From NCBI RefSeq assembly GCF_900634775.1, contig NC_041060.1:14597051-14661050 (forward strand): a DNA stretch of 64,000 nucleotides. Reading direction: 5' to 3'. The notes below the pieces were generated by a model. The model did no database searches. It was not told the DNA's origin and saw only the letters and a list, made by a program, of their open reading frames with translations. Origin of the DNA: Gouania willdenowi. Taxonomy: Eukaryota. Position 1 is the stretch's first letter. Every line of letters begins with the position of its first letter. Below are positions 31,813 to 57,536 of the stretch, piece by piece. A program made the translations under genes and the position numbers.

Positions 31813-32758
31813 TGTCCAGTAATTTCCAGCTCTTCTGCAAGTCCAGCATCACTATCATCCTTTGTAGTGTTGCAGGACATGTAATGGGTGAGATGCTGGA
31901 CTTCCTGCCACACTCGCTGTGTGTTATTGTCTTTATAGTGTTCTTCTATTTTCTTTGTATAAGCTATAGCCATACCAAAAAAAACAGCCAAAAACATATT
32001 TGAGAGCTCCAGTATGTTATTTAAAAAAAAATTGTGATTTTTTTATTATCCCTTCACAGTAAGGTGGAGATATCAAAGGGGCGGGGTTTTTTTGATACAG
32101 AATTTCGAAAGACAAAAGTTAAATTGGTCACTATACTTTCTTTATGTACCATTAACCATGAAATCAAGTATTTCAAAATAAAAGGCTAATTCATACAATT
32201 TAGCTTGAAGGTATTTAGAAAACTTTATTACTGTCTTTGGTTTGAATAGACAAACAATTTTGAAGTAAGAAAACATTTACTACCTTAAACTGATGCAGTT
32301 GTACAAATAGAAAGTAATAATTAGTTTTCAAACAAGATTTATATGGATATAAGGATTTATATTTGTCTCATTGTTTTTATATTACCATGTGTTTTTATTG
32401 GGTCAAATTTGCACTGCTACATGTTTATATGTCGTTATATGTTTTTATGTACTATGCACTCTTGTGTTTTGTTGTGACTTGTATGTCTTTTATGCTCCCC
32501 ATATCTTTGCACTCTGAGTCACATATATTAGGGACAAATAAAGTTGGTGATTGATTAAAAAAGAGTATTAGACTAAAACTAAGTAGTATTTTATTCAGAA
32601 GACTATGACTAAAACTAATTCCAAATGTTACTGTAAAAAAATAACCTTACTGTCAGTGATCATAATGTAAAATTGGATGTTGGGAATAAAAATCCTCTTT
32701 TTTTTTTTTTTTCATTAGTTTGTTGTGGTTCAGTGTAACAACAGTCTTTGTCCTTAAG

Positions 32759-32939
32759 GTGAAAATGCACGCCTTCCCACCAACTGTTGCAAATGGAACA
32801 TACAGAAAAAACCTAAATGGCTGGTATGAGGTAAACAATGTGATTTCTATAACGTGCAACAAAGGATATGAACACACAGGCCAATACTCAACAGCCAAAT
32901 GTTTGGGAGGAGTGTGGTCTTCTTTGCCTTCATGTCAGC
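32759..32939 (+). CDS. Sushi/CCP exon, unit A copy, intact (VKMHAFPPTVANGTYRKNLNGWYEVNNVISITCNKGYEHTGQYSTAKCLGGVWSSLPSCQ); lies upstream of the copy-A signal-peptide exon, so it probably belongs to a more 5' remnant gene
   Basis: CCP consensus (Cys spacing, W...P.C); acceptor ccttaag; phase-1 donor c|gtaagc. Its B counterpart carries a 2-bp deletion. Confidence 0.5.
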
Positions 32940-33028
32940 GTAAGCTCCTCATTGCTTTTAAGTGTGAAGAAATCACTTTTCAGATACTCTTGGTTATCAC
33001 AGTGACTCTTCTTTTTTTTTTTTTACAG

Positions 33029-33204
33029 AGCTTATCCATTCATGCCTGGAGCCTCCTAAAATCCCACATACAGGAAAACGACAGTGTTTGCTGTGGACTC
33101 AAATGTGCAATATAAATGCCAGCGTGGATACACCGCAGTGGGAGGACACACCACAGCATCTGTCACCTGCAGGGATGGACAATGGACGAGACGCCCATCC
33201 TGCA
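33029..33204 (+). pseudogene. Sushi/CCP exon with an internal 1-nt frameshift (N-half CLEPPKIPHTGKRQ in one frame, C-half VFAVDSNVQYKCQRGYTAVGGHTTASVTCRDGQWTRRPSCS in another)
   Basis: The four CCP cysteines are split over two frames around 33085. The same lesion is present in the B copy 43573..43748, so it predates the duplication or is a shared assembly error. Confidence 0.5.
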
Positions 33205-34152
33205 GTAAGAGGACAATAACGTTCTAACTATTTGCCAGCTTTAGCTTTCTCATCATCAACTTTAAAAAAAATCACACAATTGTATTCATTTATTTATTTT
33301 AGAGAATCATACCGGTTATTGAGATTCATTCATACATATATACCTGCTGATCCTTTACAGCAGACATAGGCAACCCTGGATCTAATTTTTTTGCGGCCCC
33401 CAAAACAAATCCTCAAAAATTGTATTTCACGAAGTTGGAAGGAATATAAAGCCCAATATAATACACAAAATACAGTACATGAGATGTTTACTGTATGCAA
33501 GGGAATCATGACAAGATTTATTACCGACAACAAACGTGGGGGGTGAAAGTAACTAGTTTACTTTGAGTACTATTTAATTGAGCTATCTTTACTTGTACTT
33601 GAGTATTTTATGTATGACTTACTTGTACTTGACTGCAGTTTCAATCAAGTAACAGTACTTCTACTTGAGTAGGATATATACTGTAAGTACTCTTTACACC
33701 TTCACGTAACACTGAAGTATACAGGCACCTACTGCTCAGAGGAGCTCCAGAGCTGCTTTCGACCTCGCACTCTCCAGACAAGCCTTGGTGCCTGTATCTG
33801 ACTTTTTCATCATGTAATAATAAATGTTGTATTTATATCATGAAGATGTCAGTGGAGAATTCTTCAACCTCTTCACATCAACAAGGGAAATCCATTTATA
33901 ACAACCTCTGCCCATTGGTTCAGTGGTTAGTTTTGTTTTTTTAATTAGTGACTAATGCTTGTTTTACACAATTTACTGGCTTCTCAACATAGACATTCAA
34001 TAACAGCCATTTTGGGAAATGTTTGTTATTTCCCAACTTCTTATCTCTTTGTGGATATACCCAACAATAATTAACTGATCCACATCTGTCAGCAGCTCCA
34101 AACTCAGATTTATTCTGCATGGAGTTTATGTCCTGAAAACATGTGTGCGACG

Positions 34153-34204
34153 ATGACTCTGCGTTTTCTCCTGCTGGGTCTGTTTGTTCTGATGCTGCAG
34201 CATG
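34153..34204 (+). CDS. CFH/F13B-family gene copy A, exon 1: signal peptide MTLRFLLLGLFVLMLQH(G)
   Basis: ATG followed by a hydrophobic leader and a phase-1 donor g|gtaagg; identical to the B copy 44698..44749. Confidence 0.65.
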
Positions 34205-34337
34205 GTAAGGACCTTAAACCAAACTTTATCATGGAGAGAAAAAGCTGTTTAATGGATCTTTGTACTTCTGCGTTGTGTGTGTAGCAGTTTCAATTACCAG
34301 CAAATAATGATGACATGAGATTACTATTTCCTACCAG

Positions 34338-34403
34338 GAAGAACAGTTACTGAAAATGACGGATCCACAACTGGAACTGGTGAAAGTGTCACTCCATCTT
34401 CTG
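34338..34403 (+). CDS. Possible Ser/Thr/Gly-rich linker mini-exon of copy A (GRTVTENDGSTTGTGESVTPSS); boundaries uncertain
   Basis: Acceptor cctaccag is in phase with the signal-peptide exon. The only donor that keeps phase with the next CCP exon is the weak tctg|gtgttg; the strong gtgagt 14 nt downstream breaks phase. Confidence 0.3.
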
Positions 34404-34559
34404 GTGTTGGATGTGAGTTTCTTTTTTATTGTAGACATTAATAATGTCTGTAAAATGTTCCTTCAGGAGCAGATCACGTAGAATCCCAACAGAGGGCAGG
34501 ATTCAGTCAAACAGCCATAAATCTACCAACATGTGGGGTGCTGAATGTAAAACCTTGGT

Positions 34560-35420
34560 CACTGTTTCATAGCCGACATATTTTGAACATTTAATTCATT
34601 TTCTTCACGTTTAGCTAAATTTCTTCACATTTAGCTAATTTTCTTCACATTTAGCAAACTTTTCATTCATTTAGAGCAAATTCATGTAAAACAGCATGTT
34701 CTGTCATTGGTAAAAATGTGTAAACATGAAAAATAAATCTATATATAAATGTTAAATGTAAATCTAAATGTTAAATTGTCACCACTGTAAAGCTAAATGT
34801 TTAGAAATTATACAAAGATCACAAGGCCCCGCCCACACTCCACACACCACACCCTCCCAGGTCTTCTGCATCATCAGTATTTTCATCACTGGCAAAAGTG
34901 AGTTGACATACCGCATGCCGCCGGTACTCTCAGTGATTCCACGTCTGTTAAACTGTCTGAGGGCAGTTATCTACACATTCTGTCGGCTGATGTACAGCCC
35001 GTACACCTGTCATTACCGCTCTTTTGAGTTTGTCATTTTGGAGCAATGCCGCTCTTCCCCTCTCCTCACTCACTGCCGTGGTCTGTGGTGTGGGCGGGGC
35101 CTTGTGATTGACAGATGCTGACCTGCCCATTTTGCATAATTCCTAAACATTTAGCTTTACACTTGGTGGCTGATTTAACATTTAGATATAAATGTAATGT
35201 TTAGATTTATAATTAACATTTAGATTTAATATTTACATTTAGATTGTACACATTTTTAACAATGATATAGAAAATGTTCTTCTATATGAATTTCTGTCTC
35301 AAATGAAAGAAAAATGAGCTAAATGTGAGGAAAGTGAGCTAAATGTTCAAAATCAGTCAGCTATGAAAAAGTGGGTGTTTTTACATTCAGCACCCCATAC
35401 CAACATGCATGTCAGGAAGT
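34560..35420. repeat. Palindromic foldback element (about 860 bp) built from inverted blocks of aaatgtgaagaaa / tttcttcacattt subrepeats around a GC-rich core (ggccccgcccacac ... gtgtgggcggggcc)
   Basis: Left arm 34590-34790 and right arm 35100-35400 are reverse complements; the core carries a 117-codon ORF (34768..35121). A duplicated copy lies at 46960..47830. Confidence 0.6.
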
Positions 35421-35652
35421 CGTTTGATGACCTGAGTTCATCTTTAATCCCGTACAAACTTGTGTTTACACTCCACCAACAACAGCTGCTCACTGTGTTC
35501 GTGGGTCATTTTTTTTTACCAACATGTCACAAAACGTAAATATTGTACCAAAAACAATCGTCTATGATGATGAAAAGGAGACATGATTTTTCTCTATTCT
35601 CACAGAGTTTATTGCCATAATTAATTATGTTTTCCTTTTTTTTTTTTTACAG

Positions 35653-35814
35653 TGAACAGATGTGGTGAAAAGCCAATTATTACCAATGGTGTAATTGTGC
35701 AAACCGGGAGCGATTATTTGAAATACGCGTGCCCATTGTATTACAAGCTCGAGGGCTCGGACACTGTGAGGTGCTTGAATAACGGCTTGTGGACACCATT
35801 GCCATTCTGCAGAG
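35653..35814 (+). CDS. CFH-like copy A sushi/CCP exon (VNRCGEKPIITNGVIVQTGSDYLKYACPLYYKLEGSDTVRCLNNGLWTPLPFCRG)
   Basis: Acceptor ttttttttacag; CCP consensus; phase-1 donor g|gtacaa. Confidence 0.7.
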
Positions 35815-35888
35815 GTACAAACAAAAACAAACTGCTCTGATATCTTGCTTTTAAGTAAATATTAAATATTGATATATCTTTTGCACAG

Positions 35889-36056
35889 AGGCTTTCTGCC
35901 ATGTGAACACTGAGGATTACCCCTTCTTAATAAATATACAAGCAGAATTTTTGTTGGAAGGTGAAAAGAAGAGGTTCAAGTGTGTGGAAAAATTTGTATG
36001 GAGTTCTACGTATTCAGAGTTCGAGTGCATGAATGGGATAGTGAAGCACACAGGTT
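35889..36056 (+). CDS. CFH-like copy A sushi/CCP exon (EAFCHVNTEDYPFLINIQAEFLLEGEKKRFKCVEKFVWSSTYSEFECMNGIVKHTGC); either spliced at t|gtaagt or read through to a stop at 36085
   Basis: Acceptor ttttgcacag; a CCP with long inter-Cys spacing, as in C-terminal CFH CCPs; strong donor GTAAGT at 36057. Confidence 0.65.
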
Positions 36057-39000
36057 GTAAGTATTACTGTCTCTCATTACATTAATGAATTCTACCATCA
36101 CTCACATGGTCTTTCTCTGTGAACACATACTGATGTATAAGACACAGATGGATTTTTATAGTCATTTTTGTTTGATGGGTGTTTCATTGCAACAAGAGAA
36201 TGAGTTGGAGACCATAAGGAAATTAAATGAAGTTGTGACAGTTAGCAAAATATTAAACAAAGATTTAAAGAAACAAAACTTTAACTGGAGAATGTGTCCA
36301 AACACTGAGCATTAAGGGAGGCTTGAATTGGAATGGGACACACCTGAGGGGTATCCCAGAAAGTGGGTTAAGTTCAAACTCTGAGTTTGTTCGGGCTCAA
36401 ATGAGGGAAACTCTGAGTGTCCGATTCCTGAAAACAAGGTAAGTTTTACTCTGAGTTAGTCACCATGGTAACATCCTCTGTGAACTGAACCTGCTCGCTG
36501 GCAGGTTTTGTCTAAGAAACGTTGGGTTTCTACCTGGCTCCGCCCATCTAAACACGGCTTCTCTAGGAACACTTTAGTTTACCTTGACACTCTTCTCCGA
36601 CCACACATTTAGAACATCACACACCGCAGACGTGCGCTCACATTGTTACAAATGTTGTGCTGCTTTAGGTTTGTTTTGTTTTTGCAAACGGTAGTTTTCT
36701 TTACTACATTGTGGATGCAGAGCATATTTAGTTAAAGGTTCTAACGCCTATTATCGTCTTTTATAAAGTTCCCTGGATACAAACCTGTGCCAAATGTAAA
36801 GGTGAAATGTCAATTTAAAAAAATACACATTTAAGACTCAACATTTACATTGTTTCTGAAAAAAATCAAAGAGCAATATGGATGTTACAAGTGGATTAAT
36901 ACCTATTAACTGTAGAGTGTGTGTGGAAGTAGTGCAATGTTTTAGGAAGCACAGGAAATCATAGGGTCAGGGGTTCAAAATTCAACCTGGATTTTTTTTT
37001 TTTTTACAACGTCCTCTTGGGACGTCTAGAGTACATCTTTTTTGGACGTGCTGACGACTCATTTTACATGATGTAAAATGACGCGATGTCAAGCGGCCGT
37101 CACTGTCTGTAGAGCCGAGGCTGCAGCCCTCTCACTGTATCGGGAAGTTCCTCAACTTACTGGGGCCAAATGAAAGAGGAATACTCCTTGAATAACCCTT
37201 TTAAATTCTAATTATATTTTGAGTGAACTCATCCTTTAGTAACTCTGTAAGTTGATAATTTAAACTGTAAGTACAAGTGGAGCTGTCTTTGATAAGTGCT
37301 GTAAACGTACGGCCGGAGAAGAAGTGATCAGCCCTTTCAGCGCTGCTGCCGGCTCCGCAGACACAAGACTATTCATACTATTAATATTATTCCCTGGTCA
37401 CCGAAAAGCGCGACAATGTTTAAGCGGCTCATCACGGGCGATTTAAGCAACTATAGTCACTGAAGTTGCGTTCTATGTGAACGCACCTTTAGAACAGGCT
37501 TGTATTCCCCAAACACCTCCTTTTTTACCCATCTGGGTGAAATAAATATCTCTCTTCCAGCTGGTTGCCATGGTAGTTTGTGTTATCTTTGCTTTATTGA
37601 TGGTAGCTTTTAGGTTTACATACTCAGATTTGATTGACCCACTTCATACCAGCTGTAATAGAATCGGATAGACTCAGAATTTGTTGAACCTCCTTTCTGG
37701 AATACTCCTCAGGTGTCAAACATGAGGAAGCTAATCACTCACAACCTAAACACACTGACATCACTGGGAGGTGGAGACACCAGCAGGAATACCAGGGAAC
37801 ACAAAGACTCACAAGACTTAACAGAACGATCAAAGCAACTAGAAACCTAAACTACAAACAAATAAATAAACTAGGACTTACTGAAATAAACTCAGAAACC
37901 CACAGGGCTAAAAAACAAACCCTGTGTTGATCTAAAATATCTGATAGCTACACTTTGTCTGAAGGCTCCAGCTAACCTCTCACTGTTTTTTTGTTTGTTT
38001 ACAGGTTGTCGTAAAGCTCAGTTTTTAATTGTGAGTATTCCCACATTTCTTAAAACAAACACTAATGATCACAGCCGTACTTTTATAGAAAAAGTGGCAG
38101 ATCTACTTAATTCCTAAAGGCATCTCTATGATTATGGAACCAACTTCCTGTGATTTCTTTTAGGTTAAAGTTTATCTTACAACTTTATTAGGATAAGTGT
38201 AAAGGGTTTTGAAATTTGAAGTGTGTGTGCGCGCGTGTGTCAAGAGCATTGATCTCTTGTTCAATTCAACAATATAAACATGCCTTTAGCCGCATTGTGT
38301 GCTTCTATCTGTTTATCGCACAGGAAGCTGCACCCATAATCAGGAAGTATCAGCCTAATAATCAGACTTATGGGGCTCCTACACTCTATTATGTAATATT
38401 TTCATATTGTTAACTTTTACCTTCTGTTTTGTTTTTGTTTTGTTACAGAACATGTGCTAAGAAAGCATGATTTGACTGTGTTGTCAAATCTGAAAGGGGA
38501 GTACAGATATCTTCTTGGGATTGATGACCCCAGTATACACAGTGAAGCTGGCACAAACCAAAGACACAAGAAAATCTACCAAGGGACGTTTAGACTGAAA
38601 TGGTTTCATATCTAAGGGTTGTAAACAGAGTTTGCTGCTTGTCCACCAGCCTCTGATTAACTAGAAACTTTAAGACTAGTTTCAGGAATCAACTTTTCCA
38701 GTCAGGCTACAGCGACCCTTGTATTCTTTAATATATCTACATTTAGATTCCAGACAGGAGAAATGAGTGCTTCTGTTGCAACAATGTCAAAATTGAATAA
38801 AGTAACTACTCCATTACCTTAATATCGCATTCATGTATTTATTTCCTTTAAGCACCTGTAACTCCAAAAGTCTCGGTTCACACCATACGACACATGTAGA
38901 AAAACCAGCTTGTTTTCCTGAGGTTGATCAGGAATTAGTAATTAAAGCAATACGTTTCTAGGGTATTGTGTCACATAGAGCAGGGGTTCTCAAATGGGGG

Positions 39001-42000
39001 TATGTGCACCCCTAGGGGTACGCGATGGCCTACAGGGGGTACTTGAGAGAGTGGAAAATTAACAAATAAGTGTCAGTGTTGGTCCCACTCCAGGGGTGAT
39101 ATGACCCAAAATAATAAAAACTACAGAAATAAATCTTTTCAGGAGATACTCAAAAGGTGTTTTTCAACCTTGTGGAGGGGTCGCTTAAAATTTCAGAAAA
39201 ATTTAAATAGATTTTTGAAATGTTTTAATTATTATTAAAAATATTTTTTATTTAAACACACAGTTTTCATCAATTGTATGTCTATATTTTCACTTTGCAA
39301 AACATGAATCTAGTTCAACTAAAATGCAGTAAAAAATAAAATATATATGAGCTCAAACATGATCAAAAACTCATAAATAAAAAAAAAAAGTCTTTGTGGT
39401 TGCTGGAAATTCTTGATATCAAAATAGGGTCACGATCCAAAACAGGTTGGGATCCACTGCAGTAAACACTGTTTATTTCCACTTATTTACAAAATGAGAT
39501 TATTTAAAATGTGTGTTATCACTCATTCATTCCATCATTATTCTCTATAGTTGTTTTTAATTAGTTTTCTAAGCAAAATGATGTCGTCGAACAAAGGAGG
39601 TACTTAGATTCAGAAAAAAGAGAAAGAGGGTACTTGAGCCAAAAAAGTGTGATTGTAGGGGACATGACATGTATGGATGGGCTGCGTTCTATGATGCAGT
39701 AGTAGAGGAGGTCATCAAGAGTCAACTCTGTACCATTTTGACACTTTCACATCCTTAAAGAGTAACTAAACCCTAAAACCACTTTTTTCTGCTGAATACA
39801 ACCGTATTTGGGTATAAAGTAGTGCTGTTGACTGATTCTGGTCCAACTCTATAAACATGTAGTTGTAAAATGTCAGAGTGACTGCCCTCTATGGGTTGAA
39901 ACCTGGCTATTACAATAGATTTTTGCTCATGGCTGAGAACTTGATCATGTGGCGTTTTGGGACCATCTTGTGTCACAAACAAGCATTGTTAGCCCCGCCT
40001 CTTTTATAAAAACTAGCACTTGTGGGCTCTACAGTCTGTGGTGAGCAGGTAGTGAATAAGTGATGACATATTTTAAAGAATCTAATTTTGTAAATAAGTG
40101 GAATAGAACAGTATTTAGTGCCTCCTGAATAGATCTATTTCTATAGTTTGTATCATTTCCTGTCATTCCCACCTGTAGTGGGACCAAGTCTGACCCTTGT
40201 ATTTTCAGTTCATGTTCTAATCAAGATCATTTTGTGTATTTTGTTGTTTGTCTGTTCTTTTTATTATTCAGTATATTGTTTTTGTCATTTCTGTGTTGTT
40301 GGTGTTATTTAAAGTTTTCTTTCTCTTTGTGTGTGTTTCTGGTGCCGTTTGGTTGTTTCTTATGTCGTTGTGTACGTTTCTCTGTTATTTTTGTGCATTT
40401 TGTCTGTTCTTTGTATTATTCAGTATATTTTTTCTCATATTGTGTTTTTGTTGTCGTTCTGTGAGTTGCTGGTAATATTTTGTGAGATAATAATCTTTCT
40501 ATAAAAGCAAGGAACGTCTCCGTGTGTGTGTAGCGAATATCTCTCCGACGCAATGCGAGTTCGACCTGAAACTTAGTCGACGGCTTCCAAATACCCCGAG
40601 TTTGTGTATTTGTTATTTTGGAGTAATTTGGTCATTTCTAAATGTTTATTTTAATTTTATTTCACTTCTGGACAGCCCCGAAATGAAACCTATTCAACTT
40701 TTGACCGCAGGGTTTGAGGGGGCGCTAGCGCACCATCTATAGCTATTTCACGGCACAGCTCCACACCCGAGCAAGAGTCACGTGTGCGGCCACTCCTCCT
40801 CCACTTCCTCCTGTGATATGTTATCGTTAGCTTCTCAAACACGGAGCTCTCTGAATAGATCATTTGAAACCGTCAGCCACTGGTGAGTCTTTTGCAGACA
40901 CGTTTCCCATTGTTTAAACCACATAACTGTCCGTGTAATTGCTCAATAACGCGCTGTTTCACTAGAGTCGGTATTGAACTCAACCCGTTCAATACTCCAT
41001 CTGGAAAACTGCAGATTCTCGGTGGTGCCGTGCATGGAAGCGAAGCTCTGACCACTCTTTTTGAAGGTTATGATTTTTGTTTTGTTTTTTTTAAAAAAAA
41101 AAAAAAAGACAGCCGAATTGTAGATAATACTTTAATTTACTTACTCAGTCATGTAGTTTGGAGTTCTACATTCTGTTTTGCGCAGTTTTGTTGTTTTTCT
41201 GATTGGCGCTACAATCGCTATGGAGTTTGGATATCAGCGTCTCAAACATGTCACGGAGCACACACACACACGGTATTTGTTTATTTATTTATAATCAAAA
41301 TATACTAAATGTGTAAAATAAAACAAAAAAACTAAACAATGTTTACTTAAAGTTCACACAATTACAACAGAAATGCATAAAAATACACAAAATGACAAGA
41401 GAATCACACTACAATGGCAACAAAAAACTATAATTATACAAAAACACAACAGATAGATACAAAAATAGACACAATGACTCCAAAAAACATACATTGCAGA
41501 AAAATACACCAAACAAAAAAAATGTAAAAGTGAGTGGAAAAAAAAAACAAACATTTATCATGTTCATGTCTCATAGAATTAAACCAGGGAAATCATACAC
41601 ACTATTTTACGTTGCACCCACAAAGAAACCCCTTTATAACACTACAGAGTACAGAGTATGTAGACCTCTTTGTACATCCAACCTTCAAACACATACTCAT
41701 TTGGCCATAATTGACAACTACTTAAGCCCCCACTATATGAATACATACTTTGGACGGGCACTGTACTAGCAACCAAAAACAATCATACAAAAAATGCATT
41801 GTTTCCCAAACTTTTTTTGCTCATGTACCCCTATCATCAAAATAATAATTTTTAATTAAAATAGACATTATAAAACCCCCTTTTTTCTCTCTCTCAAGTA
41901 CCCCGTCGTGCCATCACGTACCCCCATTTGAGAAACACGGGTTTTTTCAAGAACTTTTAGAAAACTGGTCCATGGAAACACCAGGAGAATTTAGCACTCA

Positions 42001-45024: not shown

Positions 45025-46141
45025 GTAAGTGATGGATAAAATTCTAGAGAAGGGGACATCAACATGTTGCCTGCGGGCACCAGGTAGCCCATCTAAAATC
45101 TAAATTACTTTCCAGGATTCAAACTCACAAAGATAAATACAGATGTAAGATGTAGTTAGTATTTAGTAGAGTTATATACTGCTGCATGTGATAAAGTTTC
45201 AGTAAATTACCATGTGTATACGTTTATTTTCACTGAAACTTTGTGGCCAACGTTTTTAAGTGTTGCAAATTTAGTGTATGGGTATATACATGTATATATA
45301 CAGACCCTTTCCAAAAAATTAGAGTATCATGGAAAATGTGTTTCATTTCCATAATTCCAATCAAAAAGTTCAACTTTCATAGATTATATATTCAGGGCCC
45401 ACTGATTAAATGATTTCAAGTATTTATTTGTTTATTTTTACATAATTTGGGCTTCCCACTCGTAAAACCCACGAAAAATGGAGTTCAAAAAACAGAACAG
45501 AACCCAAGCTGCTTGAGGTCCAGTGTGAAATATCCAATCAGTCATGATTTGGGGTGCAATGTTCTGTTGTGTTCCTCATCCGTCTTCTTCCAAACCCTTG
45601 GACCTTGATTCCAGAATGAAAGGCACACTTTTCTTTCATCAGAAAAGAGGACCTTGAACCACTGGCAAACAGTCCAGTCCTTCTTCTCTTCTTTTTTTTA
45701 AGTCAATGGTGATTTCTTCACAATATTCAAATTTTTTTAAATTAATGTGAAACCGTGAACATTTAGTATTTAAGATACTTATTTATGGTTTTTAAACCGG
45801 TAGCCCTTTGGACTATTGAGTACTTCATACTCAATAGTACAGTACAGTTTCAGAAAGGTTGGTGACCCCTGGGTGGTTGAAAATAATGTTGTCAGCGGCT
45901 GATTTTTTTAAAGTCCTGTTCGTACTGAAATCTGGCCTCTATGGACTATCAGACTTTTTCTTCTTATTCAGAAGCTACTAAAAATACTTTGTTGCTGTCT
46001 TTTATCTAGTCCTGAACCTTTTTGGTGCTTTTGCCGAGTGCTTAAGATAAGATAATACTTTATTAGTCCCACAATGAGGAAAAATTCAAAGAAAGAGATA
46101 CAATGTTTTTTTGTTTTGTTTTTTTTTTCTTTCCCTACTCA

Positions 46142-46291
46142 GATGAAAAGGCCTGCGTTAAACCTTCCATCCCCAACTCAGAAAACATTGACATGGAAGG
46201 AAATACACTCGAATTTACATGTAAAACAGGATACGAACCACAGAGTTACAATTGTGTCGATGGTTCATGGTCTTCTATGCCTGTTTGTGCG
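46142..46291 (+). CDS. Copy B sushi/CCP exon 3 (DEKACVKPSIPNSENIDMEGNTLEFTCKTGYEPQSYNCVDGSWSSMPVCA)
   Basis: Acceptor tccctactcag, donor a|gtaagt; CCP consensus. Absent from copy A. Confidence 0.75.
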
Positions 46292-46375
46292 AGTAAGTCA
46301 ATCAGAATGACTCCAGCACATTGTGAAGCACATCATCTACTTGTTCCAATTCGAAATGATCTGCTTCTTTCACAG

Positions 46376-46567
46376 GTAACGTCCGTGCATGCGGTGAGCC
46401 TCCACAGGTCCCTCATGCAGTTGTCATTTATCAGCACTACCGGGAGGAGTTTGCTGACGGTACAATGTTGCTGTATGAATGTGAGGAAGGATACACAACA
46501 GAGAAATACGGCACAAAAGCGTCAGTCACTTGTCAGAAAGGGACCTGGACTGCAGGCCCAACATGTC
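46376..46567 (+). CDS. Copy B sushi/CCP exon 4 (SNVRACGEPPQVPHAVVIYQHYREEFADGTMLLYECEEGYTTEKYGTKASVTCQKGTWTAGPTC)
   Basis: Acceptor tctttcacag, donor c|gtgagt; 63-codon CCP. Absent from copy A. Confidence 0.75.
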
Positions 46568-46730
46568 GTGAGTAGCACACTTTAGCACACTTTTCAATGT
46601 GCTGATCCTCAGTGTTGATGCTCAGTTTATATTAAATGATTGTGTGAAATTACGTATACTTGTGATATCAAAGGCAAAAGTTTCAATTACCAGCAAATAA
46701 TGATGACATGAGATTACTATTTCCTACCAG

Positions 46731-46796
46731 GAAGAACAGTTACTGAAAATGACGGATCCACAACTGGAACTGGTGAAAGTGTCACTCCGTCTTCTG
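46731..46796 (+). CDS. Possible Ser/Thr/Gly-rich linker mini-exon, copy B (RRTVTENDGSTTGTGESVTPSS)
   Basis: Same reasoning as 34338..34403. Confidence 0.3.
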
Positions 46797-46959
46797 GTGT
46801 TGGATGTGAGTTTCTTTTTTATTGTAGACATTAATAATGTCTGTAAAATGCCATTTTGGTGTTCCTTCAGGAGCAGATCACGTAGAATCCCAACAGAGGG
46901 CAGGATTCAGTCAAACAGCCATAAATCTACCAACATGTGGGGTGCTGAATGTAAAACCT

Positions 46960-47830
46960 TGGTCACTGTTTCAAAGCCGACATATTTTGAACATTTAATT
47001 CATTTTCTTCACGTTTAGCTAAATTTCTTCACATTTAGCTAATTTTCTTCACATTTAGCAAACTTTTCATTCATTTAGAGCAAATTCATGTAAAACAGCA
47101 TGTTCTGTCATTGGTAAAAATGTGTAAACATGAAAAATAAATCTATATATAAATGTTAAATGTAAATCTAAATGTTAAATTGTCACCAGTGCAAAGCTAA
47201 ACGTTTAGAAATTATACAAAGATCACGAGGCCCCGCCCACACTCCACACACCACACCCTCCCAGGTCTTCTGCATCATCAGTATTTTCATCACTGGCAAA
47301 AGTGAGTTGACATACAGCATGCCGCCGGTACTCTCAGTGATTCCACGTCTGTTAAACTGTCTGAGGGCAGTTATCTACACATTCTCTCGGCTGGTGTACA
47401 GCCCGTACACCTGTCATTACCGCTCTTTTGAGTTTGTCATTTTGGAGCAATGCCGCTCTTCCCCTCTCCTCACTCACTGCCATGGTCTGTGGTGTGGGCA
47501 GGGCCTTGTGATTGACAGATGCTGACCTGCCCATTTTGCATAACTCCTAAACATTTAGCTTTACACTTGGTGGCTGATTTAACATTTAGATATAAATGTA
47601 ATGTTTAGATTTATAATTAACATTTAGATTTAATATTTACATTTAGATTGTACACATTTTTAACAATGATATAGAAAATGTTCTTCTATATGAATTTCTG
47701 TCTCAAATGTGAGGAAAGTGAGCTAAATGTTCAAAATCAGTCAGCTATGAAAAAGTGGGTGTTTTTACATTCAGCACCCCATACCAACATGTATGTCAGG
47801 AAGTCATTTGATGACCTGAGTTCATCTTTA
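46960..47830. repeat. Second copy (unit B) of the palindromic foldback element
   Basis: ORF 47172..47525 is paralogous to 34768..35121; same inverted subrepeat arms. Confidence 0.6.
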
Positions 47831-48034
47831 ATCCCGTACAAACTTGTGTTTACACTCCACCAACAACAGCTGCTCACTGTGTTCGTGGGTCATTTTTTTT
47901 TACCAACATGTCACAAAACGTAAATGTTGTACCAAAAACAATCGTCTATGATGATGAAAAGGAGACATGATTTTTCTCTATTCTCACAGAGTTTATTGCC
48001 ATAATTAATTGTTTTCCTTTTTTTTTTTTTACAG

Positions 48035-48196
48035 TGAACAGATGTGGTGAAAAGCCATTTATTACCAATGCTGAAATTGTGCAAACCGGGAGCGATTATT
48101 TGAAATACGCGTGCCCATTGTATTACAAGCTCGAGGGCCCGGACACTGTGAGGTGCTTGAATAACGGCTTGTGGACACCATTGCCATTCTGCAGAG
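48035..48196 (+). CDS. Copy B sushi/CCP exon (VNRCGEKPFITNAEIVQTGSDYLKYACPLYYKLEGPDTVRCLNNGLWTPLPFCRG)
   Basis: Paralogue of 35653..35814, with 4 nt differences. Confidence 0.7.
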
Positions 48197-48270
48197 GTAC
48201 AAACAAAAACAAACTGCTCTGATATCTTGCTTTAAAGTAAATATTAAATATTGATGTATCTTTTGCACAG

Positions 48271-48438
48271 AGGCTTTCTGCCATGTGAACACTGAGGATT
48301 ACCCCTTCTTAATAAATATACAAGCAGAATTTTTGTTGGAAGGTGAAAAGAAGAGGTTCAAGTGTGTGGAAAAATGGGGATGGTTTTCTACGTATTCAGA
48401 GTTCGAGTGCATGGATGGGATAGTGAAGCACACAGATT
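48271..48438 (+). CDS. Copy B sushi/CCP exon (EAFCHVNTEDYPFLINIQAEFLLEGEKKRFKCVEKWGWFSTYSEFECMDGIVKHTDC)
   Basis: Paralogue of 35889..36056, with 7 nt differences; donor t|gtaagt, or read-through to a stop at 48467. Confidence 0.65.
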
Positions 48439-51400
48439 GTAAGTATTACTGTCTCTCATTACATTAATGAATTCTAACATCACTCACATGGTCTTTCTCT
48501 GTGAACACATACTGATGTATAAGACACAGATGGATTTTTATAGTCATTTTTGTTTGATGGGTGTTTCATTGCAACAAGAGAATGGGTTGGAGACCATAAG
48601 GAAATTAAATGAAGTTGTGACAGTTAGCAAAATATAAAACAAAGATTTAAAGAAACAAAACTTTAACTGGAGAATGTGTCCAAACTCTGAGCATTAAGGG
48701 AGGCTTGAATTGGAATGGGACACACCTGAGGGGTATCACAGAAAGTGGGTTAAGTTCAAACTCTGAGTTTGTTCGGGCTCAAATGAGGGGAAACTCTGAG
48801 TGTCCGATTCCCGAAAACAAGGTAAGTTTTACTCTGAGTTAGTCACCATGGTAACATCCTCTGTGAACTGAACCTGCTCGCTGGCAGGTTTTGTCTAAGA
48901 AACGTTGGGTTTCTACCTGGCTCCGCCCATCTAAACACCGCTTCTCTAGGAACACTTTAGTTTACCTTGACACTCATCTCCGACCACACATTTGGAACAT
49001 CACACACTGCAGACATGCGCTCACATTGTTACAAATGTTGTGCTGCTTTAGGTTTGTTTTGTTTTTGCAAACGGTAGTTTTCTTTACTACATTGTGGATG
49101 CAGAGCATATTTAGTTAAAGGTTCTAACACCTATTATCGTCTTTTATAAAGTTCCCTGGATACAAACCTGTGCCAAATGTAAAGGTGAAATGTCAATTTA
49201 AAAAAATACACATTTAAGACTGAACATTTACATTGTTTCTGAAAAAAATCAAAGAGCAATATGAATGTTACAAGTGGATTAATACCTATTAACTGTAGAG
49301 TGTGTGTGGAAGTAGTGCAATGTTTTAGGAAGCACAGAAAATCATAGGGTCAGGGGTTCAAAATTCAACCTGGATCATCTTTTTTACAACGTCCTCTTGG
49401 GACGTCTAGAGTACATCTTTTTTGGACGTGCTGACGACTCATTTTACATGATGTAAAATGACGCGATGTCAAGCGGCCGTCACTGTCTGTAGAGCCGAGG
49501 CTGCAGCCCTCTCACTGTATCGGGAAGTTCCTCAACTTACTGGGGCCAAATGAAAGAGGAATACTCCTTGAATAACCCTTTTAAATTCTGATTATATTTT
49601 GAGTGAACTCACCCTTTAGTAACTCTGTAAGTTGATCATTTAAACTGTAAGTACAAGTGGAGCTGTCTTTGATAAGTGCTGTAAACGTACGGCTGGAGAA
49701 GAAGTGATCAGCCCTTTCAGCGCTGCTGCCGGCTCCGCAGACACAAGACTATTCATACTATTAATATTATTCCCTGGTCACCGAAAAGCGCGACAATGTT
49801 TAAGCGGCTCATCACGGGCGATTTAAGCAACTATAGTCACTGAAGTTGCGTTTTATGTGAACGCACCTTTAGAGCAGGCTCATATTCCCCAAACACCTCC
49901 TTTTTTACCCATCTGGGTGAAATAAATATCTCTCTTCCAGCTGGTTGCCATGGTAGTTTGTGTTATTTTTGCTTTATTGATGGTAGCTTTTAGGTTTACA
50001 TACTCAGATTTGATTGACCCACTTCATACCAGCTGTAATAGAATCGGATAGACTCAGAATTTGTTGAACCTCCTTTCTGGAATACTCCTCAGGTGTCAAA
50101 CATGAGGGAGCTAATGACTCACAACCTAAACACACTGACATCACTGGGAGGTGGAGACACCAGCAGGAATACCAGGGAACACAGACTCACAAGACTTAAC
50201 ACAACGATCAAAACAACTAGAAACCTAAACTACAAACAAATAAATAAACTAGGACTTACTGCAATAAACTCAGAAACCCACAGGGCTAAAAAACAAACCC
50301 TATGTTGATCTAAAATATCTGATAGCTACACTTTGTCTGAAGGCTCCAGCTAACCTCTCACTGTTTTTCTGTTTGTTTACAGGTTGTACTAAAGCTACGT
50401 TTTTAATTGTGAGTATTCCCACATTTCTTAAAACAAACACTAATGATCACAGCCGTACTTTTATAGAAAAAGTGGCAGATCTTAATTCCTAAAGGCATCT
50501 CTATGATTATGGAACCAACTTCCTGTGATTTCTTTTAGGTTAAAGCAAATCTTACAACTTTATTAGGATAAGTGTAAAGGGTTTTGAAATTTAAAGTGTG
50601 TGTGCGCGTGTGTGTCAAGAGCATTGATCTCATGTTCAATTCAACAATATAAACATGCCTTTAGCCGCATTGTGTGCTTCTATCTGTTTATCGCACAGGA
50701 AGCTGCACCCATAATCAGGAAGTATCAGCCTAATAATCAGACTTATGGGGCTCCTACACTCTATTATGTAATATTTTCATATTGTTAACTTTTACCTTCT
50801 GTTTTGTTTTTTTTGTTACAGAACAAATGCGAAGAAAGCACGATTTGACTGTGTTGTCAAATCTGAAAGGGGAGTACAGATATCTTTTTGGGATTGATGA
50901 CCCCAGTATACACAGTGAAGCTGGCACAAACCAAAGACACAAGAAAATCTACCAAACGACGTTTAGACTGAAATGGTTTCATATCTAAGGGTCGTAAACA
51001 GAGTTTGCTGCTTGTCCACCAGCCTCTGATTAACTAAAAACTTTAAGACTAGTTTCAGGAATCAACTTTTCCAGTCAGGCTACAGCGACCCTTGTATTCT
51101 TTAATATATCTACATTTAGATTCCAGACAGGAGAAATGAGTGCTTCTGTTGCAACAATGTCAAAATTGAATAAAGAAACTACTCCATTACCTTAATATCA
51201 CATTCATGTATTTATTTCCTTTAAGCACCTGTAACTCCAAATGTCTCGGTTCACACCATACGACACATGTAGAAAAACCAGCTTGTTTTCCTGAGGTTGA
51301 TCAGGAATTAGTAATTAAAGCAATACGTTTCTAGGGTATTGTCATGTAGAGCAGGGGTTCTCAAATGGGGGTATGTGCACCCCTAGGGGTACGCGATGGC

Positions 51401-51755
51401 CTACAGGGGGTACTTGAGAGAGTGGAAAATTAACAAATAAGTGTCAGTGTTGGTCCCACTCCAGGGGTGATATGACCCAAAATTATAAAAACTATAGAAA
51501 TAAATCAATTCAGGAGATACTCAAAAAACCACAAGGGTTTTTGAGTATCCCATGATACTCCCATTGAGACCCCATGTGGAGTCGCTTAAAATAAAATAGA
51601 TTTTTGAAATGTTTTATTATTAAAATATTTTTTAATAAAACACAGTTTCCATCAATTGTATGTCTATATTTTCACTTTGCAAAACATAAATCTCGTTCAA
51701 CTAAAATGCAGTAAAAAAAATAAATAGGAGCTCAAACATGATCAAAAACTCATTC

Positions 51756-51921
51756 TTTTTTTTTTTTTTTTTTGGGCTCTAGTGGCCTTTATATGACAGT
51801 TGCTTGACAGGAAAGGGATCAGAGAGAGCAGGGAATGACACGCAGCAAAGGGTCCCAGGCCGGGAATCGAACCTGGACCGGCTGCAGGTGAGGAACTACA
51901 GCCTCTGTACATGGGGCGGGC
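51756..51921 (-). mobile_element. tRNA-derived SINE, unit-B-specific insertion with a 12-bp target-site duplication aaaactcattct and a poly-A tail (poly-T on +)
   Basis: A has ...caaaaactcataaat... uninterrupted at 39375. B has aaaactcattc + T18 + SINE body (ggttcgattcccggcctgggaccctttgctgcgtgtcattccc on the minus strand) + aaaactcattct. Confidence 0.7.
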
Positions 51922-52914
51922 AAAAACTCATTCTAAGAAAAAGTCTTTGTGGTTGCTGGAAATTCTTTATCAAAATGGGGTGTATATATATCTTATGTTT
52001 ATTATTAATACTGCCATACTTATTTTTATATCTTATTTTGTATATATATCAATATAAAATGCTCTTCATCCCTTCCCTCCTGTTTCTCTCACACACACAC
52101 ACCTATACTATAAAAAATTGTAAATACTGTTCCCTGGATCAATGCTGTCGGGTTTTTTGTTCCTGTGTATTGTCTTGTATGTTGCAAAGCAAAATAAATA
52201 AAAATAAAAAATGAGGTCACGATCCAAAACAGGTTGGGAACCACTGCAGTAAACACTGTTTATTTCCACTTATTTACAAAATGAGATTTAAAATGTGTGT
52301 TATCACTCATTCATTCCATCATTATGCTCTATAGTTGTTTTTAAATAGTTTTCTAAGCAAAATGTTGTCGTCGAACAAAGGAGGTACTTAGATTCAGAAA
52401 AAAGAGAAAGAGGACACTTGAGCCAAAAAAGTGTGATTGTAGGGGACATGACATGTATGGATGGGCTGCGTTCTATGATGCAGTAGTAGAGGAGGTCATC
52501 AAGAGTCAACTCTGTACCATTTTGACACTTTCACATCCTTAAAGAGTAACTAAACCCTAAAACCACTTTTTTCTGCTGAATACAACCGTATTTGGGTATA
52601 AAGTAGTGCTGTTGACTGATTCTGGTCCAACTCTAAACATGTAGTTGTAAAATGTCAGAGTGACTGCCCTCTATGGGTTGAAACCTGGCTGCTACAATAG
52701 ATTTTTGCTAATGGCTGAGAACTTGATGATGTGGCGTTTTGGGACCATCTTGTGTCACAAACAAGCATTGTTAGCCCCGCCTCTTTTATAAAAACTAGCA
52801 CCTCTGGGCTCTACAGTCTGTGGTGAATAGAGAGGTGTCATGAGTAGCTAGTTAGCATAGATTGTTACAAGAGCCCCGCCCATAATCAAGGTATTTTTTT
52901 GAATGGCCAAGGCT

Positions 52915-53340
52915 ATGGATACATTAAACGTATCCATAGACTGCCACTTTATACATACGCAGCGCCCCTCATTGGCCAGTTTAGATCATGTTATAGGTGC
53001 ACCACGTGACTTAACGTTCCGTCAGTTGTATTTTAGCTCAAATTTATTTTCAGCTACCCCGCTAACTCTTTTATTTTAGCCCTATCCGTAACTCTAATCC
53101 TAACCCTAAAATGTTTATTTTTGTCGTATATGTATTTTTAATGGTGGAGTTTGCCATGTTAAGCATGTTAAAATGAAAAAAGGTATGTCAAAAGTGGGAT
53201 TCGAACCCACATTAGCGGAAGGAAGTGGACCATTCGGAAATCCTGAAACGATGAAAACACAGGCACAATTATGTAGAAAAGGTCTGGAAATGTAGCCATA
53301 GTCCAGGGGGCTGTGGCTACATTTAACGTATCTCTAGACA
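52915..53340 (-). repeat. tRNA-derived SINE-like element, uninterrupted copy of the family at 2221..3150
   Basis: Perfect T-arm GTGGGTTCGAATCCCAC on the minus strand; terminal acatttaacgtatc repeats. Confidence 0.5.
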
Positions 53341-53521
53341 CTTTTTGAATTTCCCTCCTTGTGGCAAGTCAGGAGAAAGCAGGAGTTTTGTTATTCTTTA
53401 AGCATACTGGGATTGAATCTTGTGTTTAACCCTATTATTTGGCTAAAGCATGTGCTGTGAAAGGTTCCTCTTAGAATATGGCGGGCCTTCATCACACATC
53501 TCGGCCACAGACCACACGTTC

Positions 53522-54123
53522 TCAATGAGCGTGATCTGCCGTAGAAATGTTCTGCACGGATGAGGCTGAATCCAGTCCTAGCAGAGTGCCGAGGTAGGAC
53601 TGCTCCCGAGGATCCAGTGTCTGCTCAGACCTCATGGGATGCACGTTGTTGTACTTGTCTAAGAAGTTCAGGTCTGCAGCTGCCTGGTAGCCAGCGGTCT
53701 GCTGCTGTCCCTGAGCCTGCATGCTGACAACACCGTGAGTCTGGGTCCTGTGAGTGGTCAAGTCAGTCGGCGCACCTCCCGCTATCTGCACCGGCACCAA
53801 CGTGACGGGGACGGAGGCATCCACAGGAGAGGAGCTGCTCTGGATGCTTGATTTCTCCTCATCTTGGTACGACTCTGAGGCCTCTACAAAGGGAATGGAG
53901 ACTATCTTTTCCTCGTTGAGCGCCGCGATGGGCTGCGTTTCCATAAAGCGGGCGCTGTGTACGTGGTCTACGTGGTACTTTAGCTTGTCCTTTCTTTTGA
54001 AGGTGGAGCTACAGTGGGGGCAGTTGAACGGACGAGCGTCTGAGTGGATCACCATGTGCTTTGTCAGTGTCTTCTTGATCCGAAATGTCTGATGGCACTC
54101 AGGGCATCTGTAGGGTTTCTCAC
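53522..54123 (-). CDS. zbtb41: ZBTB41 terminal coding exon (zinc fingers GEKPYRCPECHQTFRIKKTLTKHMVIHSDARPFNCPHCSSTFKRKDKLKYHVDHVH plus C-terminal tail ...REQSYLGTLLGLDSASSVQNISTADHAH, stop)
   Basis: Acceptor ttgtgtccag on the minus strand in phase with exon 8. The tail matches the conserved ZBTB41 C-terminus. Present only in duplication unit B. Confidence 0.8.
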
Positions 54124-55692
54124 CTGGACACAAGATGTGGGATGATCAAACTATAGGTAATAAAACTCCACAAACATTAGCTTTCCTTAATTAATCATCT
54201 GTGTTCATCAGTGTTTCTCAAACTTTCTCTTATTTCTGAATCCAAGTTCCCCCTTTGTCGGTGATGGATGATTAAGTGATGACATATTTTAAAGAATCTA
54301 ATTTTGTAAATAAGTGGAACAGAACAGTATTTAGTGCCTCCTGAATAGATCTATTTCTATAGTTTGTATCATTTCCTGTCATTCCCACCTGTAGTGGGAC
54401 CATGTCTGACCCTTGTATTTTCAGTTCATGTTCTAATCAAGATCATTTTGTTGTTTGTTCTTTTTATTATTCAGTATATTGTTTTTGTTGTCATTTTTTT
54501 GTTGTTGTTGGTATTATTTAAAGTATTCTATCTCATTGTGTGTGTTTCTGGTGCCGTTTGGTTGTTTATGTCGTTTTGTACGTTTCTCTGTTATTTTTGT
54601 GCATTTTGTTTGTTCTTTTTTTTTATTCAGTATATTTTTTCTCGTATTGTGTTTTTGTTGTCGTTCTGTGAGTTGCTGGTAATATTTTGTGAGATAATCA
54701 TTTTTAATTAAAAATGAACATAATAAAACCCCATATTTTTTATGTTTTCATTTGTTGATTTTTATCGTCGACTACTAAAAACTAAACTATTATTCACAAG
54801 TAACAAAATCCAATCAGAACTCAGTTGCAATTTTGGATCCAATCAAAACGACGTTTGTTATGTGGGAGGCTGCGGGACAAGCCTTAATACAATCCAATAT
54901 CAGGTTGATCAATGCTTATACACAGTACATAAACTATTTATGTAGCAGATTTAGTCGACTAAAATTTTAATGTAATTTAATTGACTAAAACCAGAGGGGG
55001 CAAAAGTTCTAGTCTTCAGAACTCAAGTAAAAGTATAGATAATTGAATAAAAAATGACTATGGTAAAAGTACAAGTATTGAAATTGCTCCTTGACTTGAG
55101 TAAAAGTAAAAAGTACATGCTACTTAATGTACTTCATTAAAAAAGTAAAACAAATATTTCTTCAATAATAAGACAGGGTTTTTAAACCAACAAATTCCAT
55201 ATTTTTTATTTTTTCAAGAACTTTTAGAAAACTGGTCCATGGAAACACCAGGAGAATTTAGCACTCAGATAAAATTTGTAAATAAAATCTATTAAACCTA
55301 GAGCAGTTTAAAGTTGAATATTTCTAAAAACTGGAAAATGTTAACCGTAAAACTAACAGAAAAAAGCTCAAACTACCAAAATTGTGCGTCTTTTTATGTT
55401 GTGGCGTCATCTTCAAAGGTCTTAAAAGTAACGAGCTCATTTTTAAAATGTAAGGAGTAAAAAATTTGTTTAAAAAAGTAAGGAGTAAAAGTAAAAAGAC
55501 TGCCACTAAAACTAAATAAAAATTTGCTGTCAAAATGAACACTGCAACAGAAACAGGGATGAAGAACGCCAGTGATAACATTGGACATAATAGTAAATCA
55601 TTCAAAGTTTTACTCATGAGTGAGTTTCTCCATAAATATGAAATACTACATCTGAAAATTTGAGAATTAATGAAGTTTATTGTTGCCTTACC

Positions 55693-55781
55693 AGAGTGAG
55701 TCCTGAAATGCATTTCCAGACTGGACTTTCCTTTAAATTCTTTCTTGCAAACTTCACATTGATGTATGGCAGTTTTATACC
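55693..55781 (-). CDS. zbtb41: ZBTB41 zinc-finger exon 8 (KYKTAIHQCEVCKKEFKGKSSLEMHFRTHSG)
   Basis: Acceptor ctgtactcag and donor g|gtaagg on the minus strand, phase-consistent with its neighbours. Confidence 0.8.
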
Positions 55782-55906
55782 TGAGTACAGAAGAATAAAA
55801 ATATACACTAAGCACAAAACCAGGTACATTTAACCAGTGCATGCTAATACTGTAAAAAGAAAAAAAATATCAATAATAAAGAAAATGGGAGGAATGTAAA
55901 ACATAC

Positions 55907-57510: not shown

Positions 57511-57536
57511 TAAGTTACTCCAATCACTGGACTCAC

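Follow-up and report, generated by a model that had tools for sequence, protein, structure and literature searches.

The origin and the retention of factor H-related proteins (FHRs) are debated, and one idea sees them as decoys that counter the hijacking of factor H by pathogens. Mammalian FHRs keep the surface-recognition domains of factor H, not the regulatory ones, and duplication combined with domain loss is the textbook route to these proteins in primates (PMC10099856). In teleosts, the cfh genes are linked to b3galt2 and zbtb41 as neighbors, and species-specific tandem duplicates of cfh and cfhl have been described; zebrafish cfhl1-4 are cited in the same work (PMC7768046). Here we analyze two cfh-like genes of Gouania willdenowi, denoted gene A and gene B, which are located in a 64,000 nucleotide (nt) stretch of contig NC_041060.1 (assembly GCF_900634775.1, positions 14,597,051 to 14,661,050 of the forward strand). 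This entire stretch is referred to below as the window, and all coordinates are window positions. The two genes lie on two tandem copies of one duplicated unit. Gene B encodes a protein with five complement control protein (CCP) domains, whereas the upstream gene A has lost exactly the exons for CCP1 to CCP3 through a microhomology-mediated deletion, and retains an uninterrupted open reading frame (ORF) for a product of 168 aa that consists of the signal peptide, a linker, CCP4, CCP5 and a cysteine-rich tail.

The tandem units and the deletion in gene A

The duplication was delimited as follows:

31833..42621, unit A, 10.8 kb, from self-BLAST and a MAFFT alignment of A with B
42622..55872, unit B, 13.3 kb; the A-like sequence stops after ...aaaatatc, at about 55872
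42614..42635, A/B junction: the unit end aaaatatc, a 2 nt filler (ta) and the unit start ttctgcaagtcc, read directly against 31820-31845 and 55860-55880

The units are arranged head-to-tail, as found both by a direct-repeat search and by self-BLAST, and the 93 bp at 31833-31925 are found again at 42624-42716, right behind the end of unit A. Across the alignable blocks, 8264 of the 8471 sites match and 207 are mismatched, that is, an identity of 97.56% when only substitutions are considered. Direct reading of the junction revealed no repeat at the A/B breakpoints, and the window contains no N at any position. The join has the signature of a non-homologous tandem duplication, either by end joining or replication-based, and is unlike a scaffolding join. 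The start of unit A that BLAST alone had suggested (32038) was moved to 31833 once the junction was read; an earlier note on this DNA, made from the letters alone, had put the start of two tandem units of about 97% identity at 31820, and both the start and the identity agree with the present values.

The left duplication breakpoint (31833) lies inside a degraded fragment resembling a long interspersed nuclear element. This fragment, with a PF09004-type C-terminal region, is located in 31250-32040, and a run of about 22 G is present at roughly 31787-31808.

Gene B, the copy with the full layout, consists of the following exons:

44686..44749, plus strand, exon 1: ATG and signal peptide, phase 1 at the end; equal to the NCBI model
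44830..45024, plus strand, exon 2: CCP1, 195 nt, phase 1-1; AG/GT boundaries, NCBI model
46143..46292, plus strand, exon 3: CCP2, a shortened CCP, 150 nt, phase 1-1; AG/GT boundaries, family alignment
46376..46567, plus strand, exon 4: CCP3, 192 nt, phase 1-1; AG/GT boundaries
46731..46805, plus strand, exon 5: Ser/Thr/Gly-rich linker, 75 nt, phase 1-1; linker columns in the family alignment
48035..48196, plus strand, exon 6: CCP4, 162 nt; AG/GT boundaries
48271..48438, plus strand, exon 7: CCP5, 168 nt, the last Cys codon being split by the intron; NCBI model
50383..50408, plus strand, exon 8: mini-exon with the first part of the CC-x9-C tail; tail kept in the family alignment
50822..50848, plus strand, exon 9: the rest of the tail (NKCEESTI) and the stop codon; tail kept in the family alignment

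The spliced model encodes a product of 352 aa and is identical to the NCBI model P0001 (XP_028329268, 'complement factor H-like'). Its layout, namely a signal peptide, CCP1-3, the Ser/Thr/Gly linker, CCP4-5 and the CC-x9-C tail, is kept in 11 other percomorph species in the family alignment. All exon boundaries are GT-AG, the exons of 195, 150, 192, 75, 162 and 168 nt are multiples of 3, and the internal exons from CCP1 to CCP5 are all located between phase-1 introns. Two mini-exons (26 nt plus 12-27 nt) encode the tail, which is kept throughout the percomorph family and probably forms an additional disulfide after CCP5, recalling domain V of beta2-glycoprotein I (beta2GPI). Read-through of the CCP5 donor, with an end at ...CKYYCLSLH and products of 165 and 343 aa, was also considered, and was ruled out by the NCBI model and by the conservation of the tail in the family alignment. 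The CCP2 of gene B comprises 50 codons and lacks the NGWYE motif region, which other species have and which the dead CCP2' exon described below also contains; thus, the live N-terminal half of gene B itself diverges from the family norm.

The corresponding features of gene A, and the segment of B that has no counterpart in A, are:

34141..34204, plus strand, exon 1: signal peptide; exon and 5' untranslated region identical to B at 109 of 109 positions (A/B alignment)
34282..34289, plus strand, deletion scar in intron 1: the NAGNAG acceptor of CCP1 (tag/cag/) and AGTT at 34286-34289, read directly
34338..34412, plus strand, exon 2: linker, 75 nt, in frame with the signal exon (..LQHG/RTVTEN..); present in the NCBI models P0007 and P0069
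35653..35814, plus strand, exon 3: CCP4, read from the sequence
35889..36056, plus strand, exon 4: CCP5, read from the sequence
38005..38030, plus strand, exon 5: tail mini-exon, read from the sequence; family tail
38449..38460, plus strand, exon 6: NMC and the stop codon, terminating on the conserved last Cys like most homologs (family alignment)
44831..46678, equivalently 44835-46682, plus strand: 1848 bp segment of B with CCP1, CCP2 and CCP3, absent from A (A/B alignment)

The 1848 bp segment begins within nt +2 to +5 of the CCP1 exon and ends 52 nt ahead of the linker exon. In B, both of its edges carry the tetranucleotide AGTT (44831-44834 and 46679-46682; gcAGTT/ggatc ... caaaAGTT/tcaatt), whereas a single AGTT is present in A. 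In gene A, the acceptor of CCP1 and 5 nt from the start of its exon have survived (tag/cagtt), fused to the sequence that lies 52 nt before the linker exon. The sequence of the scar, the AGTT microhomology and the conservation of the B layout in other fishes identify A as the derived copy: a deletion occurred in A through microhomology, not an insertion in B. The lost exons comprise 537 nt (179 codons) and are all of phase 1-1; therefore, the reading frame was kept, and the signal exon can be spliced in frame to the linker exon. A peptide such as FVWSSTYSEFECMNGIVK is specific to gene A. Both Gouania genes are already included in RefSeq.

The earlier note had derived gene A from a B-like gene by loss of CCP exons, which the scar, the microhomology and the B layout of other fishes bear out. 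Its starts for the exons of CCP1 to CCP5 of B (44833, 46142, 46376, 48035 and 48271) hold with respect to the AG/GT boundaries, NCBI using a tag/ acceptor for CCP1 at 44830, that is, 3 nt upstream of 44833. The clean breakpoints that it had quoted for a B-only segment 44835..46683 are correct, apart from the end, which lies at 46682 (1848 bp), with AGTT being shared between the edges. It had also let gene A run from the signal exon almost straight to the last two CCPs; these CCPs are indeed kept, but the 75 nt linker exon and the tail mini-exons had been missed.

Upstream of the signal exon, two dead CCP exons are present in each unit, and further remnants are found outside of the units:

30394..30778, plus strand, just outside unit A: a signal-peptide-like exon without ATG (30394-30435) and a CCP1-like exon interrupted by an in-frame TAG (30596-30778), used by the Ensembl model P0002
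32759..33206, plus strand, unit A: CCP2' (32759-32941), in which the first Cys is lost, and CCP3' (33029-33206), with a frameshift; used as 5' exons in the NCBI models
43306..43750, plus strand, unit B: copies of CCP2' and CCP3' with the same defects, including the frameshift (sequence reading)

The defects are the same in A and B, and thus the damage is older than the duplication. Taken together, the relics resemble the upstream half, now decayed, of an earlier duplication that covered the gene's 5' half. The Ensembl model P0002 chains the relic exons to the exons of gene A, which is probably an annotation artifact. The two NCBI models of gene A, P0007 and P0069, differ in a single residue immediately before the signal-peptide exon, a difference that has the appearance of alternative acceptors at a NAGNAG site.

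The order of the genes at the locus is b3galt2, cfh-like, zbtb41, so that the cfh-like genes are flanked by b3galt2 and zbtb41, and the locus is syntenic with the human CFH/CFHR/F13B region; b3galt2 and zbtb41 are also the neighbors of the CFH cluster in human. The CFH gene neighborhood further includes aspm and crb1. The flanking features are:

10788..12086, minus strand: b3galt2, single-exon ORF, the upstream syntenic anchor (Pfam Galactosyl_T 4e-60, B3GALT2_N 1e-23)
53525..62540, minus strand: zbtb41, with the BTB exon at 62540-61311, zinc-finger exons down to 55790-55686 and the last coding exon at 54124-53525
42424..42528, minus strand: stray copy of the penultimate zinc-finger exon of zbtb41 in unit A (tblastn, repeat families)
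52828..54267: second B-only segment, about 1.44 kb, with the last exon of zbtb41 (A/B alignment)

The last two exons of zbtb41 (55790-55686 and 54124-53525) are located inside unit B; the duplicated unit took in the 3' end of this gene. The second segment is gone from A, where a 12 nt filler, gcaggtagtgaa, is present in its place at 40045-40056. Unit A has thus lost its copy of the last zbtb41 exon by a separate deletion of about 1.44 kb. Elsewhere in the window, inverted repeats of about 0.8 kb with 86.6% identity (3534-4356 on the plus strand and 12734-13513 on the minus strand) bracket b3galt2 and are probably two copies of a transposable element. A frameshifted retroelement remnant with RVT_1 fragments is located on the minus strand in 25500-30000, and is GC-rich (54%). 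An Rfam scan of the window found no RNA families.

Family, structure and divergence of the encoded proteins

Both products exceed the gathering score of the Pfam family Sushi (PF00084; E = 9.2e-23 with four stretches for gene B, E = 3.4e-6 for gene A), and the Cys/Trp pattern of Sushi domains, which are modules of about 60 residues with four conserved Cys and one conserved Trp, is seen in the translations of both genes. CCP5 is atypical in that it lacks the Trp before the fourth Cys, as does CCP20 of CFH, and it is missed by the Sushi hidden Markov model. Against the Protein Data Bank (PDB), the best match of gene B is CFH (1e-69), followed by F13B (2e-27), DAF and CR2, and NCBI names the genes 'complement factor H-like'. 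Judged from these similarities and from the flanking genes, the genes belong to the CFH family and the locus is a CFH-family region; the products are predicted to be secreted proteins that consist only of CCPs, with CFH as the closest characterized relative. The assignment to the CFH/F13B family in the earlier note is thus supported by Pfam, by the ranking of the PDB matches and by the b3galt2 and zbtb41 flanks.

For CCP1-3 of gene B, the comparison with the PDB did not single out any region of CFH: CCP13-15 reached 52 bits, CCP4-5 46 bits, and CCP6-8 as well as CCP9-10 42 bits, while fragments of CFH6-8 or of CFHR1 CCP1-2 were also matched (46-48 bits), as was DAF CCP2-4 (52 bits). With matches spread in this way, a correspondence to CFH CCP6-8, which would result in the CFHR3-type layout of CFH6-8 plus 19-20, found no unambiguous support. 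Gene A is devoid of N-terminal CCPs, and thus trivially lacks the regulatory region of CFH CCP1-4, which carries the cofactor and decay-acceleration activities.

Up to its last residues, the CCP pair that gene A has kept is collinear in alignment with two-domain chains of CFH CCP19-20, CFHR1 CCP4-5 and FHR-2. It is 30% identical to human CFH 1107-1231, with every Cys aligned. In an AlphaFold2 model of the gene A product that was built with 37 homologs, residues 50-168 have predicted local distance difference test values of about 96-97, whereas the signal peptide and the linker are of low confidence; the hydrophobic N-terminal signal is modeled as a helix (residues 4-20). A Foldseek search of the PDB with this model ranked CFH19-20 first (23-27% identity, target TM-scores of 0.55-0.62), followed by CFHR1 CCP4-5 and FHR-2. 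The model and the alignments indicate that the folded part of the gene A product corresponds in position and structure to CFH CCP19-20 and to the CFHR C-termini. Domains IV-V of beta2GPI align about equally well with the retained pair by sequence; an assignment to a beta2GPI-like family was nevertheless rejected, because the fold ranking and the synteny favor CFH.

The divergence between A and B is distributed unevenly. In the introns between shared exons, 56 of the 3678 sites differ (1.5%). Over the coding sequence from CCP4 to the tail, there are 18 differences in 368 nt, compared with 5.6 expected at the intron rate (Poisson P = 2e-5), and in the two tail mini-exons 7 of the 38 sites differ (P = 3e-6), although the flanking introns are nearly identical. 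According to the Nei-Gojobori method, the region from CCP4 to the tail contains 16.5 nonsynonymous and 0.5 synonymous differences, with a nonsynonymous rate 3.7 times that of the introns (P = 5e-5). The comparison of exons with introns is the informative divergence test here. A dead copy that decayed neutrally would diverge at the rate of the introns; thus, the threefold higher divergence of the coding sequence does not fit such decay. The excess could reflect diversifying selection, micro-conversion limited to the exons, or clustered mutation.

When the differences were polarized with the family alignment, each of the two copies showed derived states: in B, G59A and N149D are derived and the ancestral stop is lost, whereas in A, E60V is probably derived. 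By alignment, differences are located at or next to CFH P1114, G1118 and D1119 in CCP19 and Y1205, R1206, S1208 and D1220 in CCP20. The regions of these CFH residues are presumably ligand-contact areas, in view of the complexes of CFH19-20 with C3d and with sialic acid and of the mutations of atypical hemolytic uremic syndrome. If mutation rates of 2-5e-9 per site and year, as in fishes, are assumed, the intron divergence of 1.5% would correspond to an age of roughly 1.5-4 million years.

The two-CCP layout is not confined to Gouania. An exhaustive HMMER search with the gene A product as query retrieved complete proteins of the same layout from Centropristis striata (XP_059200395-7, 'CFHR3-like', 159 aa) and from Leuresthes tenuis (XP_072219122, 'beta-2-glycoprotein 1-like', 162 aa). 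Like gene A, they have a Met, a signal peptide ending in ..LHG, an S/T-rich linker, CCP4, CCP5 and a CC..C tail, and they are 36-41% identical to it. The Leuresthes locus shares the exon plan of gene A, but its intron 1 contains no relic of CCP1-3, and no paralog lies within 10 kb. The genes of these two species are older, stand-alone genes, whereas gene A is a recent derivative that is located beside its parent and in which the scar is still visible. In the family search, which was word-limited, the closest relatives outside of Gouania reached no more than 47% identity. Some further family members lack CCP2 or CCP4, and some end after CCP3. Gain and loss of whole exons are thus routine in this family, as expected because its exons are symmetric in phase 1. 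In atheriniform relatives (P0195, P0324 of Menidia menidia, and P0240 of Odontesthes), two to three tandem CCP4-CCP5-tail modules or extra CCP4 modules sit behind a single signal peptide and linker, so that in this lineage the C-terminal module has multiplied instead of only being kept.

Explanations for the short gene

The explanation that we regard as likely on the whole starts with a secreted factor H-family gene with five CCPs, located next to zbtb41, which, as the sequence shows, was copied head-to-tail as a segment of about 11-13 kb with a non-homologous junction. The upstream copy then lost 1848 bp by microhomology-mediated deletion, which removed exactly the exons of CCP1-3, and the signal exon can be spliced in frame to the linker exon, which creates an in-frame gene for a signal peptide, a flexible linker, a CFH19-20-like pair and a Cys-rich tail. 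In the inferred part of the explanation, gene A would be expressed, and its product secreted solely as a recognition module for surfaces or C3 fragments, which may bind the kinds of ligands of the C-terminus of B (C3 fragments, host or microbial surfaces) without a contribution of CCP1-3. By analogy with human and mouse FHRs, it might compete for ligands with its full-length paralog B, or diversify from it, and would not itself be a complement regulator. The coding divergence between the copies would then reflect diversifying selection on the recognition surface. The main uncertainty of this explanation is the expression of gene A.

Several observations weigh against this explanation. The duplicate is very young, so that an intact ORF is weak evidence of function. 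The old CCP1 acceptor, together with its pyrimidine tract, survives in A 53 nt upstream of the productive acceptor, and splicing at this site yields LQHAVSITSK followed by a premature stop codon. The NCBI coding sequence of gene A takes its start from an in-frame AUG further upstream, within a dead CCP exon that carries a frameshift, and the resulting products (P0007 and P0069) have a frameshifted CCP and an internal signal peptide; this start is probably an annotation artifact of choosing the longest ORF. A direct test of nonsynonymous against synonymous rates was not significant (Fisher p = 0.39), with a power limited by only about one to two synonymous changes. The coding changes are, moreover, clustered in three places, namely 5 nt in codons 136-139, the adjacent codons 59-60, and the tail, and this clustering could reflect micro-conversion from another paralog or multi-nucleotide mutations instead of selection.

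Several of these points would also be expected if copy A were a non-functional by-product, that is, a young duplicate that was crippled by the deletion and has transcripts that are mostly mis-spliced or translated from the wrong AUG. With an intron divergence of only about 1.5%, there would have been little time for the ORF to decay, the proximal acceptor and the upstream AUG in the relic exons are still present, and unit A has suffered the second deletion of 1.44 kb as well as other indels. However, the frame is intact across five splice junctions and the stop codon is located exactly behind the conserved terminal Cys, the coding exons differ at three times the intron rate, unlike in neutral decay, the same layout is a maintained gene in other fishes, and the AlphaFold2 model is confident. 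A non-functional copy A appears improbable to us, while still being the strongest competitor of a functional short gene.

A second alternative concerns only the excess of exon divergence, which might stem from exon-restricted gene conversion by cfh-family paralogs elsewhere or from multi-nucleotide mutation instead of positive selection. It would account for the clusters (including the 7 of 38 nt in the tail) beside nearly identical introns. Within the window, however, there is no copy of CCP4, CCP5 or the tail that could act as donor, the only Gouania proteins retrieved in the family search, which was word-limited, are the products of these two genes, and almost all changes are nonsynonymous. 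We consider conversion or multi-nucleotide mutation to be a somewhat improbable source of the excess, in about the same degree as a dead copy A.

Far less probable is an assembly artifact in which one locus is present twice, its two divergent haplotypes A and B having been assembled one after the other. A divergence of 2-3% and kilobase-scale indels fit the range of haplotypes at immune loci, and false duplications are generally known from long-read assemblies. Yet the window is free of N and gaps, the junction is continuous and shows a true tandem signature (unit end, 2 nt filler, unit start), the flanks are unique, and the unit ends within a zbtb41 intron and has left a stray copy of a zbtb41 exon in A. 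Finally, short genes of the A layout in other fishes might suggest that this layout is ancestral and that B gained CCP1-3 by insertion, but this is effectively refuted by the scar, in which the CCP1 acceptor and 5 nt of exon pass directly into intron-4 sequence, and it also disagrees with the AGTT at both breakpoints of B, which is typical of a deletion, and with the five-CCP layout being the majority form of the family.

Comparison with known systems

The locus represents an early stage in the birth of an FHR, at which both the parent and the daughter gene can still be read, along with the junction of the duplication and the scar of the deletion. It also shows why the number of CCPs varies so easily, as all internal exons are of phase 1-1 and the loss of whole exons keeps the frame. 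The coding-specific divergence in the CFH19-20-like module, together with the recurrence of the two-CCP layout, suggests that the short form is useful.

G. willdenowi has been reported to lack immunoglobulin genes, and possibly the canonical C1 complex (bioRxiv 10.1101/793695; 10.64898/2026.05.16.725622). Complement regulators of this species may therefore be under unusual selection, but nothing in the present analysis causally ties the loss of antibodies to the locus. The most far-reaching reading would be that gene A is a newborn secreted protein (about 1.5-4 million years old) that consists only of the recognition module and is diversifying together with its parent, under selection, in an antibody-less host that would depend on complement acting without antibodies, the same form having arisen independently in at least three percomorph lineages. 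We regard this combination as doubtful; if it were true, gene A would offer a minimal 'FHR' of natural origin on which the decoy or deregulation hypothesis could be tested.

Among the known systems, APOH (beta2GPI), a plasma protein with an aberrant, lipid-binding domain V, resembles gene B in having five CCPs, the last of which has an extra disulfide and a C-terminal extension that ends in a Cys. By sequence, CCP4-5 are about as similar to its domains IV-V as to CFH19-20, and some of the short homologs are named after APOH by NCBI. However, APOH scores lower than CFH19-20 in the Foldseek comparison (TM-score 0.35 vs. 0.55-0.62, identity 18-20% vs. 23-27%), the cysteine pattern of its extra disulfide differs, and the locus analyzed here is the CFH region, not the APOH region.

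The closer parallel is found in human CFHR1-5. Like gene A, they arose by tandem segmental duplication in the CFH cluster, at a shared syntenic locus. They encode secreted proteins made up of CCPs, as is predicted for gene A, and these proteins keep the homologs of CFH CCP19-20, the pair that recognizes surfaces and C3d, and lack the regulatory N-terminus (PMC10099856). The origin of the Gouania pair is, however, separate and lineage-specific: A and B differ by only about 1.5-2.4%, so that their split is recent and they are not orthologs of any human CFHR. The parent also differs: it is CFH for the human genes, and a gene with five CCPs for gene A. Gene B is not CFH, but is itself already a short, CFHR-like gene with five CCPs. 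With two CCPs and an unstructured linker, gene A has fewer CCPs than any human FHR (4-9 CCPs) and no dimerization CCP1-2, and it carries the CC-x9-C tail, which is absent from CFH and from the FHRs. The earlier note had seen in the locus an independent teleost instance of the process that generated the CFHR genes; this is correct for the duplication, the loss of CCPs and the CFH19-20-like pair, whereas the parent was not CFH and the case is not unique.

The teleost study cited above covers gene counts and phylogeny of the species-specific cfh and cfhl duplicates, but not this pair, its breakpoints or a form that is reduced to the C-terminal pair (PMC7768046). As the phenomenon is documented in mammals as well as in teleosts and both genes are annotated, the gain is illustrative, not conceptual. 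Thus, compared with these systems, the locus is a real but fairly ordinary example of the origin of short factor H-related genes, to which it adds the junction, the scar, the relic exons, the duplication of zbtb41 exon sequence, the coding-specific divergence, and a two-CCP layout that recurs in fishes.

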